Positions 2,257-5,226 of a DNA stretch of 5,558 nucleotides are shown piece after piece. Numbering within the stretch: position 1 is the stretch's first letter; each line of letters starts with the position of its first letter. The DNA comes from a virus (taxonomy: Duplodnaviria; Heunggongvirae; Uroviricota; Caudoviricetes), in IMG/VR virus record IMGVR_UViG_2711768068_000018, positions 1-5,558 of that record; one strand, written 5' to 3'. A model generated the notes under the pieces. It was given only the letters and a program-made list of their open reading frames with translations, searched no databases and was not told where the DNA came from. Made by a program: the position numbers and the translations under genes.

Positions 2257-2616
2257 ATGAAGAAAAAATACGAACTGGGTGTTAAAGGGATAAATAATTA
2301 CCCGGATAAGATTACTGTTACTGTGGCACTGGAAATTGGTGGGTATCCGTCACTGTTGTTGCCAGATGTGGCGATTAGTCTTGACCGTACTGAAGGTGCC
2401 ACGCTGGAGTTTTACGAAGCTGAGGCGAAAAAGCAGGCGAAGCAGTTTTTCATGGATGTTGCTGCCGGGTTATGTGAAGGGGATGGTCCGTTGCCGGAAA
2501 AGCGGCCCATCATTTTAGAGGCGCAGGATGTGTTGATAACCTACAGAGGAAAACTACCGGGAATAATTACTGGTTCTCTGAAGACTACTGAAGACTTAAC
2601 ATATCCAGGGATTTGA
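2257..2616 (+). CDS. Hypothetical soluble acidic protein (119 aa) between holin and endolysin
   Basis: ATG 4 nt after the holin stop with a GGGGGGAG Shine-Dalgarno at 2242-2249, indicating translational coupling. No TM segment and no motif I recognise. This position is empty in phage 21 and lambda. Confidence 0.7.
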   Translation: MKKKYELGVKGINNYPDKITVTVALEIGGYPSLLLPDVAISLDRTEGATLEFYEAEAKKQAKQFFMDVAAGLCEGDGPLPEKRPIILEAQDVLITYRGKLPGIITGSLKTTEDLTYPGI

Positions 2617-2641
2617 AATCGATAAATCCTGATAAATATCC

Positions 2642-3175
2642 ATGAACGCAAAAATCAGATACGGCCTGTCGGCTGCCGTTCTGGCGCTGATTGGTGCAGG
2701 GGCGTCTGCGCCTGAAATCCTCGACCAGTTTCTGGATGAAAAGGAAGGTAACCACACCACAGCATACCGTGATGGTACGGGTATCTGGACCATCTGCCGC
2801 GGTGCCATCCTGGTGGATGGTAAACCTGTCGTCCCGGGCATGAAGTTGTCGAAGGAAAAATGCGACCAGGTTAACGCCATTGAGCGTGATAAGGCGCTGG
2901 CATGGGTGGAGAAAAACATCAAAGTGCCGCTGACCGAACCCCAGAAAGCGGGGATCGCGTCATTCTGTCCGTACAACATTGGTCCCGGTAAGTGTTTCCC
3001 GTCGACGTTTTACAGACGAATTAATGCAGGTGATCGAAAAGGTGCCTGCGAAGCGATTCGCTGGTGGATTAAGGACGGTGGCAGAGACTGCCGTATTCGT
3101 TCAAACAACTGTTACGGTCAGGTATCCCGTCGTGACCAGGAGAGCGCGCTGGCGTGCTGGGGAATCGACAGATAA
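2642..3175 (+). CDS. SAR endolysin (GH24 T4-type lysozyme family, phage-21 R-like)
   Basis: 177 aa. N-terminal weakly hydrophobic Gly/Ala-rich signal-anchor-release segment (YGLSAAVLALIGAGASA), then E35/D44/T50 in the spacing of the GH24 lysozyme catalytic triad (EGNHTTAYRDGTGIWTICRG). Overall collinear with recalled R21 and E. coli RrrD-type lysozymes. Confidence 0.92.
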   Translation: MNAKIRYGLSAAVLALIGAGASAPEILDQFLDEKEGNHTTAYRDGTGIWTICRGAILVDGKPVVPGMKLSKEKCDQVNAIERDKALAWVEKNIKVPLTEPQKAGIASFCPYNIGPGKCFPSTFYRRINAGDRKGACEAIRWWIKDGGRDCRIRSNNCYGQVSRRDQESALACWGIDR

Positions 3176-3314
3176 GAAGAATATTTTGCTGAAAAATGAG
3201 GTTTGCTTACATGGACGGATAACACGAAATCCTGCAAATTGGCAAAATGTAAGTGAATAAAGTCAAAACAGTTGTTTAACACTCAGGCACCGTAATGATG
3301 CCTTTGTCATTTCT

Positions 3315-3336
3315 GCGCATCTCACGCGCATCTCAC
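3315..3336. repeat. Perfect tandem duplication of an 11-bp unit (GCGCATCTCAC x2)
   Basis: 3315-3325 and 3326-3336 are identical, in the intergenic region about 110 bp upstream of the Ant-like gene. Confidence 0.6.
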
Positions 3337-3445
3337 AACACAGAACCTTTCAGGATGACCCTTGAGGATACCGGTTTGGCTGTCGGTGCCTTTCTGTGGG
3401 CTGGATTCCTGTGAGACAAGGTTCATCACTAAAAGGAAATAACCG

Positions 3446-4015
3446 ATGAATATGATGGCCGTGCCGTTTCACGGCAACTCTCTTTATGTAGTTAACCATA
3501 ATGGCGAACCATACGTTCCCATGAAACCTGTCGTTGCGGGGATGGGGCTGGCCTGGCAATCACAGTTGGCTAAGTTAAGACAGCGTTTTGCGTCAACTAT
3601 AACGGAAATCGTTATGGTTGCTGAGGATGGGAAACAACGCAATATGGTGTCCATGCCACTTCGAAAACTTGCCGGCTGGCTACAAACCATTAATCCCAAC
3701 AAAGTAAAACCCGAAATCCGCGATAAGGTCATCCGGTATCAGGAAGAGTGCGACGATGTTCTTTACGAGTACTGGACGAAGGGTTTTGTCGTTAATCCCC
3801 GTAAAATGAGCGTGATGGAAGAACTCAACCAGGCTTGTGCTGACATGAAACGGGATAAAAACATTGCCAGTGTGTTTGCTACCGGGCTGAATGAGTGGAA
3901 ACAGGTTAAAGCCGCGCATGTATCAAAAATCCGTACGCTGGTAAATGAAGCGAATATGCTGATTGATTTTGTCCTGGCTGATACAGGCAAAGGGAAAATA
4001 ACAAAGGCGGATTGA
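3446..4015 (+). CDS. Putative antirepressor-like protein (Ant/AntA N-terminal-domain type), 189 aa
   Basis: ORF with an AGGA Shine-Dalgarno (3433-3436). The N-terminal region (VPFHGNSLYVVNHNGEPYVPMKPVVAGMGLAWQSQ...) resembles, from memory, antirepressor N-terminal domains annotated in enterobacterial prophages. Domain family not confirmed by a search. Confidence 0.7.
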   Translation: MNMMAVPFHGNSLYVVNHNGEPYVPMKPVVAGMGLAWQSQLAKLRQRFASTITEIVMVAEDGKQRNMVSMPLRKLAGWLQTINPNKVKPEIRDKVIRYQEECDDVLYEYWTKGFVVNPRKMSVMEELNQACADMKRDKNIASVFATGLNEWKQVKAAHVSKIRTLVNEANMLIDFVLADTGKGKITKAD

Positions 4016-4026
4016 TGGGGTGGCTA

Positions 4027-4161
4027 ATGATATCAGATAAACTCATAACGCTGGTGAAGAGCCTCTGTGTACTTGTCGGCATTTCATTTTTAGTCATGCT
4101 GGTTGCCATTTTCTTTTCCACCGCCTGGCGAGTCCTGACGTTATCGGGACTGGTGGGGTGA
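4027..4161 (+). CDS. Possible small single-pass membrane protein (44 aa), not in the ORF track
   Basis: ATG 4027 to TGA 4159-4161: [44 protein letters not shown]. One hydrophobic helix. Tiles exactly between the Ant-like stop (4015) and the Rz start (4169); GGGG 6 nt upstream. Could be a chance ORF. Confidence 0.3.
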
Positions 4162-4168
4162 AAGAGAG

Positions 4169-4636
4169 ATGAACCGTGTTCTGTGTGTGGTGATTATTGT
4201 CATGGCGGTTGGCTGTGGTGCGCTGTGGCTGGCAACAAACCATTACCGTGACAACGCGCTCACCTACAAAGCGCAGCGCGATAAAAAAGCCAGAGAGCTG
4301 GAACAGGCGAATGCCACCATTACTGACATGCAGGTGCGCCAGCGTGATGTTGCTGCGCTCGATGCAAAATACTCGAGGGAGTTAGCCGATGCGAGAGCTG
4401 AAAATGAAACTCTGCGTGCTGATGTTGCCGCTGGTCGTAAGCGCCTGCGGATCAACGCCACCTGCTCCGGTACCGTGCGTGAAGCCACCGGCACCTCCGG
4501 CGTGGATAATGCAACCGGCCCCCGACTGGCAGACACCGCTGAACGGGATTATTTCATCCTCAGAGAACGGTTGATGACAATGCAGAAGCAGCTGGAAGGG
4601 GCACAGGACTATATCCGCACTCAGTGCCTGAACTAA
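4169..4636 (+). CDS. Rz: Rz inner-membrane spanin (i-spanin)
   Basis: 155 aa with an N-terminal TMD ([19 protein letters not shown]) then [32 protein letters not shown]...[24 protein letters not shown], collinear with recalled lambda Rz. AGAGAG Shine-Dalgarno at 4163-4168. Confidence 0.93.
4389..4574 (+). CDS. Rz1: Rz1 outer-membrane lipoprotein spanin (o-spanin), embedded in a different frame within Rz
   Basis: 61-aa ORF wholly inside Rz in another frame. Signal peptide plus lipobox (LVVSAC, Cys20) and a proline-rich mature part ([33 protein letters not shown]) that is nearly identical in pattern to recalled lambda Rz1. GAGGGAG Shine-Dalgarno 7 nt upstream. The true start may be Met6 (4404). 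Confidence 0.85.
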
Positions 4637-4998: not shown

Positions 4999-5226
4999 TT
5001 ATATGAACAGCCATCGCAGAGCATACTGTGTATCATTCTTTTTTATAGTCAACTGACGGGCATATTTTATGTCTGCTGCCAGCTCCCGGCGGCAAGATTC
5101 AATGACCCACGCAGAAAAATTTTCTGAACCTTTCTGGTCAAGAGCGATGTTAATTTGTTCAATCATCTGGTTTGGAAATCGGATGTTGCGGGTTGTTGTT
5201 CTGCGGGGCCGGTTTTTCGATGACAT
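4999..5226 (-). CDS. Small DUF3950/YlcI-YnfO-like protein, possible ribbon-helix-helix DNA-binding fold (75 aa)
   Basis: MSSKNRPRRTTTRNIRFPNQMIEQINIALDQKGSENFSAWVIESCRREL... resembles recalled YlcI/YnfO-family small prophage proteins found beside terminase genes. AGAGGA-type Shine-Dalgarno on the minus strand just upstream of the ATG at 5226. Confidence 0.65.
   Translation of the reverse strand: MSSKNRPRRTTTRNIRFPNQMIEQINIALDQKGSENFSAWVIESCRRELAADIKYARQLTIKKNDTQYALRWLFI

Follow-up and report, generated by a model that had tools for sequence, protein, structure and literature searches.

The open reading frame (ORF) located between the holin and endolysin genes of the prophage region analyzed here almost certainly belongs to the YdfR/DUF1327 family and is probably an accessory gene rather than a component of the lysis machinery. 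We tentatively propose, as a whole explanation whose chances are somewhat short of even, that it encodes a moron-like late accessory protein that acts by binding a host factor through its core, RNase E being the only candidate so far.

The window (i.e., the entire stretch of DNA that was analyzed, 5,558 nt or 5.6 kb) covers late and lysis genes of a lambdoid prophage of the Stx type, and it is 98-99% identical to the Stx1a-converting phages BP-4795 and YYZ-2008. On the + strand, it encodes, in this order, an S21-type pinholin (S), the DUF1327 gene, an R21-like SAR endolysin (R), an Ant-like antirepressor, and Rz with embedded Rz1. The features of the window are as follows.

476-1672, - strand: ISEc20 (IS110-family) transposase
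2046-2252, + strand: S21-type class II (pin)holin, 68 aa (PF04971, E=1.4e-32; phrog_9876/phrog_20, holin)
2243-2250, + strand: Shine-Dalgarno sequence GGGGGGAG of the DUF1327 gene, inside the last codons of the holin
2250-2252, + strand: holin stop codon TAA, read from the sequence
2257-2616, + strand: YdfR/DUF1327-family gene, 119 aa (PF07041, E=5e-44, 148.9 bits; phrog_406, E=3.7e-62)
2257-2472, + strand: conserved folded core, residues 1-72 (AlphaFold2 model; shared with K-12 YdfR)
2473-2586, + strand: Escherichia-specific extension CEGDGPLPEKRPIILEAQDVLITYRGKLPGIITGSLKT, residues 73-110 (pLDDT <50, pN/pS 0.25)
2578-2616, + strand: variable 3' junction (CTGAAGACT at 2578-2586, A at 2587, CTGAAGACT at 2588-2596)
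2617-2641, + strand: 25-nt spacer before R, without a Shine-Dalgarno sequence
2642-3175, + strand: R21-like SAR endolysin, 177 aa (PF00959, E=1.9e-24; phrog_7, endolysin)
3446-4015, + strand: P22-Ant-like antirepressor (PF10547 and ORF11CD3)
4169-4636, + strand: Rz
4389-4574, + strand: Rz1, embedded in Rz
4999-5226, - strand: DUF3950 gene

The DUF1327 ORF is intact, with an ATG start, a TGA stop, and 119 codons, and its start codon is separated from the holin stop codon by exactly 4 nt (AGCG). Its Shine-Dalgarno sequence, GGGGGGAG, forms the strongest anti-Shine-Dalgarno duplex of the cassette (-9.4 kcal/mol, compared with -6.6 for S and -6.8 for Rz). The encoded protein has a pI of 4.99 and a maximum Kyte-Doolittle value of 1.18 over 19 residues, which means no transmembrane segment; a periplasmic signal was likewise not found in it. 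In addition, searches of Pfam, PHROGs, and NCBIfam returned no match between this protein and any lysis family or known lysis regulator. Much of the preliminary description of this stretch is thereby borne out, namely a soluble, acidic 119-aa ORF placed 4 nt past the holin stop codon, preceded by a strong Shine-Dalgarno sequence, devoid of a transmembrane segment or a recognizable catalytic motif (as judged from Pfam and hydropathy), and flanked by an S21-type pinholin (PF04971) and an R21-like SAR endolysin (PF00959). Because translation of the gene is coupled to that of the holin, its product should be made together with the lysis proteins. From this position we infer co-expression at lysis time, as had been suggested earlier. 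We detected no sigma-70-like promoter on the + strand upstream of the DUF1327 gene, and the stretch from its stop codon to R contains no convincing terminator.

Several observations concern the neighboring lysis genes and the flanks of the cassette. The SAR endolysin begins with a hydrophobic N-terminal stretch, LSAAVLALIGAGASA, as read from the sequence. At the holin start (positions 2037-2048), the window reads ATA CAT CAG ATG, in contrast to ATG TAC CAG ATG in BP-4795 and ESDR8; the dual start (antiholin/holin) is absent from both the window and YYZ-2008, such that the 68-aa form of the holin alone remains. About 50 nt 5' of the holin start lies a strong terminator-like hairpin (positions 1965-2000; 11-bp stem with 7 GC pairs, followed by a T-run), which is kept in YYZ-2008. 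ISEc20 (positions 455-1901) is inserted ~145 bp 5' of the holin start, where YYZ-2008 runs continuous, and an IS3-family element reaches into the window with its edge (positions 1-206). The insertions thus break up the late operon in the interval that separates S from the nanS-p/SASA esterase region. The ant gene, located between R and Rz, has a GC content of 46%, which is below that of the lysis genes, and it also occurs in 933W; like the DUF1327 gene, it is an accessory insert, the second one of the same cassette. Between ant and Rz, a 49-codon ORF (positions 4012-4161) encodes a very hydrophobic peptide and appears as hypothetical ORF50 in BP-4795. Scans of the window with Rfam and for tRNAs gave no match, and a repeat scan gave only short matches at chance level.

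The gene had initially been labeled as unknown, and this label has to be replaced, since the family is already cataloged as DUF1327 in Pfam and as "YdfR family protein" in RefSeq. The latter name is carried by the homologs in BP-4795 (ORF47), YYZ-2008 (gp44), mEp460, and many E. coli chromosomes, and the gene is annotated in the K-12 Qin prophage as well. The window protein matches the PF07041 profile over positions 1-88 of 93, and its score of 148.9 bits compares with a gathering cut-off of 25 bits. It shares the ~72-residue core with Y5 and Y53-E54 (EFYEAEA), and its gene has the same context as that of the type member, K-12 ydfR, directly after a class II holin and before a prophage lysozyme. 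The PHROG matches of the protein (phrog_406, 2091, and 1085) are all to groups of unknown function. Judging by the 148.9-bit match to DUF1327 and a pN/pS of 0.36, the ORF is a real gene and not a chance ORF. DNA related to its first 330 nt was found in 2923 of the 5426 complete E. coli genomes, in up to 8 places per genome. As a protein family, DUF1327 is small: a profile search retrieved 92 proteins among 1.84 billion cluster representatives, the distant relatives being stand-alone N-domains of 72-76 aa from Yersinia, Enterobacter, Citrobacter, and Pantoea.

Searches beyond the family itself were unproductive. NCBIfam contains no model that matches the window protein, a sequence profile search of the PDB gave no relatives at E<=1, and Foldseek with the full-length model gave nothing in the PDB below E=0.2. 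The BFVD structure search retrieved uncharacterized proteins only (best E=0.03), and neither the window protein nor the 176-aa and 183-aa forms of the family matched any PADLOC-DB model at E<=0.1. In the literature, mention of DUF1327 was confined to one publication, and we found no published link of ydfR to lysis. The gene itself is a cataloged one, to which the window adds nothing new except a private 3' allele.

AlphaFold2 modeled residues 1-76 at a pLDDT of 88.3 and a pTM of 0.77, using a 28-sequence alignment that reached down to 25% identity. The predicted core consists of strands at residues 5-14, 18-27, and 37-43, followed by a helix at residues 50-74. This core (residues 1-72) is the sole part common to K-12 YdfR and to the 72-76-aa relatives of other genera. 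It is acidic across the family (pI 4.5-5.6), and Y5, Y53, and E54 are invariant in alignments with members down to 25% identity. We also considered a dsRBD-like RNA binder but rejected it in view of the acidic pI and of a topology that is not alpha-beta-beta-beta-alpha; the protein does not qualify as a double-stranded RNA-binding domain, for which a basic RNA-binding surface and a Pfam dsrm match would be expected as well.

Residues 73-119 were modeled at a pLDDT of <50. Within this part, residues 73-110 are kept in the 110-, 114-, 176-, 183-, 268-, and 329-aa forms of the protein. The pooled pN/pS, calculated from pairwise Nei-Gojobori sums over 37 distinct alleles, is 0.36 overall, 0.58 in the N-domain, and 0.25 in residues 73-110, the last value indicating that the extension is constrained at the protein level. 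Past residue 110, the family is highly variable, with lengths of 110, 114, 116, 148, 176, 183, 263, 268, 287, and 329 aa. These proteins share the first ~110 residues and then carry differing coiled-coil-like or globular C-terminal additions, in which no Pfam match was found. In some database entries (169-207 aa), most of the DUF1327 gene is duplicated internally in tandem, which reflects either a genuine event or an artifact of assembly.

The comparison with the closest phages places the peculiarity of the window at this variable end. Over residues 1-110, BP-4795 ORF47 (YP_001449284.1) and YYZ-2008 gp44 are 97-99% identical to the window protein (99% for ORF47), and their genes have the same neighbors, S, R, ant, and Rz. 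Their products, however, have 114 aa and end in ...KTPPLA, whereas the window protein ends in ...KTTEDLTYPGI. The difference is due to a 10-bp deletion between two CTGAAGACT repeats, where CCACCGCTGGC is replaced by A in the window. The frameshift from position 2587 yields the tail TEDLTYPGI*, and the window end reads ...GSLKTTEDLTYPGI instead of the usual ...GSLKTPPLA. Spacings of 0, 1, and 11 nt between the repeats correspond to proteins of 110, 119, and 114 aa, respectively. The usual family form is the 114-aa one, and the 119-aa form is a private allele of the window. Indeed, its tail occurs in none of the ~88 related loci described below, and the exact 119-aa protein has no record in an index of 153 billion genes. 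The CFSAN004176 genome is 100% identical to the window over the first 330 nt, yet it has the 114-aa end. The frameshift is confined to residues past 110, beyond the conserved part, and is harmless-looking; the prophage does carry IS insertions just 5' of S. The private frameshift and the ISEc20 copy ~145 bp 5' of S raise the possibility that the gene is decaying in the window. The frameshifted tail might have been a return to the ancestral C-terminus seen in the 268/329-aa forms (...GLTYLKGRI*); we rejected this idea, as no alignment is obtained for the DNA that precedes the shared R leader.

With the aim of placing the gene in its wider context, we analyzed ~88 related Escherichia loci, made up of 80 IMG/VR contigs plus phage and chromosome records. 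In these ~88 loci, the gene follows an S21-type holin and has an endolysin gene downstream, and the 4-nt junction after the holin stop codon is kept in nearly all of those loci in which the holin lies within the locus. The SAR endolysin starts 42-50 nt past the stop codon of the short forms and 230-510 nt past that of the 148-263-aa forms. The K-12 Qin prophage follows the same plan as the window: YdfR (b1555, P76160), the type member after which the family is named, starts 4 nt after the stop codon of the holin gene essQ and is located upstream of the lysozyme gene rrrQ. The K-12 protein has 103 aa, and its basic, helical C-terminal tail is unrelated to the 38-residue extension (CEGD...SLKT) of the window protein. 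In Stx1_14040-type phages (locus L007), a 233-aa ORF (positions 3041-3742, - strand) without a Pfam or PHROG match lies between the DUF1327 gene and R. Since this ORF and the 3' end of the 263-aa ORF annotated as DUF1327 (positions 2501-3292, + strand) overlap, one of the two annotations is probably wrong.

The presence of the gene at this junction is optional. Among 489 phage records that match the region, 101 encode it, and among the Stx2a phages it is found in 2 of 124. In 933W, R occupies the slot of the DUF1327 gene, 4 nt past the holin stop codon and with the same Shine-Dalgarno sequence as in the window, and the shared genes are closely related (87.7% DNA identity for S; 98.5% for R, ant, and Rz). 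Homology between the window and 933W breaks at position 2260 and resumes at 2669; together with the position of R in 933W, this marks the DUF1327 gene as a ~408-bp indel (positions 2261-2668) exactly at the S/R junction. In addition, the gene has a GC content of 45.6% (GC3 45%), compared with 54-56% (GC3 60-68%) for S, R, and Rz. An indel at a fixed junction and a deviating base composition are both features of a moron. A promoter and a terminator of its own, as a moron would have, were not found, and the gene uses the holin-embedded Shine-Dalgarno sequence instead. Of the two roles put forward in the preliminary description, moron cargo is accordingly the one that fits better, given the presence or absence of the gene among collinear cassettes and its low GC.

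The insertion has a consequence for the endolysin gene. Where the DUF1327 gene is present, R lies 25-50 nt from the preceding stop codon (25 nt in the window), in contrast to K-12 Qin, where the ydfR stop overlaps the rrrQ start by 4 nt and R is thus coupled to ydfR. The anti-Shine-Dalgarno duplex of R amounts to +0.3 kcal/mol in the window and in BP-4795, as opposed to -8.5 kcal/mol in 933W. Hence, R is left without a Shine-Dalgarno sequence when the DUF1327 gene is present, a cis consequence that follows from presence alone.

Outside Escherichia, homologs that consist of the core only were found in 9 distinct loci of Enterobacter, Citrobacter, Yersinia, and Pantoea, all outside lysis cassettes. 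They are located after the tape-measure gene, between the tail genes M and L, or between I and J; the Pantoea homolog lies between Q and a lambda-type holin. In all 9 of these loci, a DUF1327 gene of 72-99 aa is followed by an opposite-strand ORF of 74-101 aa, with anything from a 23-nt overlap to a 28-nt gap between the two. E. coli phage Evi and E. coli G1/2 show the same arrangement, in their case within the S/R slot. The convergent ORFs that we located are the following.

L005, 2744-3040, - strand: convergent ORF
L008, 4247-4486, - strand: convergent ORF
L010, 4266-4553, - strand: convergent ORF
L012, 4240-4545, - strand: convergent ORF
L014, 4278-4529, - strand: convergent ORF
L015 (E. 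coli G1/2), 2721-2996, - strand: convergent ORF
L097, 3282-3506, - strand: convergent ORF
L098, 1374-1610, - strand: convergent ORF
L100, 3250-3486, - strand: convergent ORF
L102, 696-1001, - strand: convergent ORF

These ORFs are predicted to be helical and have no Pfam match. We rejected the possibility that they form a single family, since an all-against-all phmmer comparison divided them into at least six groups without detectable similarity to one another. One of the groups, phrog_25324, accompanies DUF1327 at three different genome positions, which shows that the two genes travel together. In the window, only 25 nt precede R, too few for such a partner.

The preliminary description had raised the question of whether the gene is always found between a pinholin and a SAR endolysin. 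This is the case in the ~88 Escherichia loci, where the holin/endolysin gap is the constant address, and it does not extend to other genera, in which the gene is found among tail genes or in the gap between Q and the holin. Of the two findings that had been named as telling against a lysis role, a variable genomic context is what our survey uncovered, and a characterized non-lysis function is weakly indicated by the interaction of K-12 YdfR with RNase E (PMC13232886). Collectively, this interaction and the non-lysis contexts point to a host-directed accessory protein and not to a lysis factor.

Phage proteins that act on RNase E include T7 gp0.7, T4 Srd, and phiKZ Dip. Like them, DUF1327 would be a small phage contact of RNase E during lytic growth if the K-12 result transfers to the family; the searches that we ran (PDB, Foldseek, and BFVD) gave no sequence or fold similarity of DUF1327 to these three proteins. 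The sole experimental lead comes from K-12, where a two-hybrid screen yielded residues 1-72 of YdfR on three occasions; with Rne 1-597, both this fragment and the full-length protein were positive in BACTH (Göpel et al., RNA Biol 2026; PMC13232886). The full-length K-12 protein, as Strep-YdfR, also co-purified Rne 1-598 and RNA, and over-production of YdfR changed few transcripts and left growth unaffected (PMC13232886). The evidence for RNase E binding is limited to the K-12 protein and to these two approaches, two-hybrid and co-purification (PMC13232886). The RNase E-binding residues 1-72 are the conserved core, and the N-domain of the window protein is 46% identical to K-12 YdfR (residues 1-74), a level at which the interaction surface may not be conserved. 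By analogy with the K-12 protein, RNase E is a possible, if doubtful, target of the window protein.

Other readings of these data have to be weighed. The DUF1327 core could be half of a mobile two-gene moron, the other half being the small convergent gene, with the window copy as a solo without its partner; such a pair might combine a lysogen-expressed effector with a late-expressed neutralizer or might form an anti-defence/superinfection module, which are possibilities. A convergent ORF in 9 of 9 non-Escherichia loci, as well as in phage Evi and E. coli G1/2 within the S/R slot, argues for a pair of this kind, as do the three genome positions of the phrog_25324 partner, the classic moron slots in which the genes are found, and the low GC of the gene. 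On the other hand, the partners fall into at least six dissimilar groups, which leaves a common function unproven, the DUF1327 forms have no PADLOC match, and the gene is under purifying selection even though the window, BP-4795, and K-12 Qin are partnerless. We consider this reading unlikely. It is quite unlikely that the gene is a non-functional remnant of the longer 176-329-aa forms in a degrading prophage, with an effect in cis only, namely spacing R from the holin-coupled Shine-Dalgarno sequence. The many C-terminal length variants at one junction, the private frameshift in the window, the ISEc20 copy and IS3-family edge upstream, and the lack of a Shine-Dalgarno sequence for R whenever the gene is present are all consistent with decay, and PGAP flags the E. 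coli G1/2 copy (L015) as "missing C-terminus". Selection speaks against it, with a pN/pS of 0.36 overall and 0.25 in residues 73-110. So do the 72-aa core, which is a complete stand-alone protein in other genera, the restriction of the frameshift to residues beyond the conserved part, and the abundance of the gene, the 114-aa form being very common and related DNA occurring in 2923 of 5426 genomes.

The other role considered in the preliminary description was that of a lysis regulator, i.e., a soluble protein that acts in trans on lysis timing by binding the cytoplasmic tail of the pinholin or the SAR endolysin. Its constant place between holin and SAR endolysin in ~88 Escherichia loci, with a nearly constant 4-nt junction where the holin lies within the locus, would suit such a regulator, and so would the strongest Shine-Dalgarno sequence of the cassette and a holin allele that here lacks the dual-start antiholin codon, except that BP-4795 has the dual start and DUF1327 together. 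A K-12 ydfR deletion is also among the envelope-leakiness matches of a genome-wide screen (supplement of PMC3879167); we infer that polarity of the kan cassette on rrrQ may explain this phenotype. Against regulation stand 933W and most Stx2a phages, which do without the gene although their R and Rz are highly similar to those of the window (98.5% DNA identity) and their S is related (87.7%), and the distant homologs, which are located in tail modules or, between Q and a lambda-type holin, beside a different holin family. When set beside holin-associated lysis regulators (the dual-start antiholin, the T4 RI/RIII type, and the P1 LydB type), the protein has no transmembrane or periplasmic targeting, shows no similarity to known regulators in Pfam and PHROGs, and is not obligately associated with the cassette. 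A trans-acting regulator of lysis timing is, in our assessment, decidedly unlikely.

We therefore return to the accessory-protein explanation, in which YdfR/DUF1327 would be a moron-like accessory gene of enterobacterial lambdoid prophages. In Escherichia, the gene, inserted at the holin/endolysin junction, would have captured the holin-coupled ribosome-binding site, which serves R in phages that lack the gene, such as 933W, and the product would be made late with the lysis proteins yet act outside the lysis machinery. The working part would be the acidic 72-residue N-terminal beta-beta-beta-helix domain, which would most likely act by binding a cytoplasmic protein of the host. The best candidate for this target is RNase E, in its N-terminal, catalytic half, and RNA turnover might thereby be adjusted late in infection. 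The 38-residue extension (residues 73-110) is specific to Escherichia and under purifying selection, and the private frameshift accounts for the final 9 residues of the window protein. As a side effect, R would be uncoupled from the ribosome-binding site of the holin.

More speculatively, and in our view improbably, the DUF1327 core could be the late partner in an undescribed mobile two-gene prophage cassette, composed of an acidic 72-aa beta-beta-beta-helix protein and a small convergent helical ORF, that hops between moron slots, namely those among tail genes, in the Q-holin gap, and at the S/R junction. In this scenario, the core would bind or inhibit a host factor such as RNase E, or neutralize its partner; the Escherichia copies at the S/R junction, the one in the window included, would be derived solo genes whose presence also deprives the SAR endolysin of a ribosome-binding site.

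For the phages that carry it, the accessory gene may matter to lysis through its position. With R devoid of a Shine-Dalgarno sequence, the R:S ratio may fall and the holin:endolysin ratio may change, which may in turn affect lysis timing and toxin release. Related DNA is present in more than half of the complete E. coli genomes, and in Stx1 and Stx2c phages the gene belongs to the late operon, where it lies beside the genes for toxin release.
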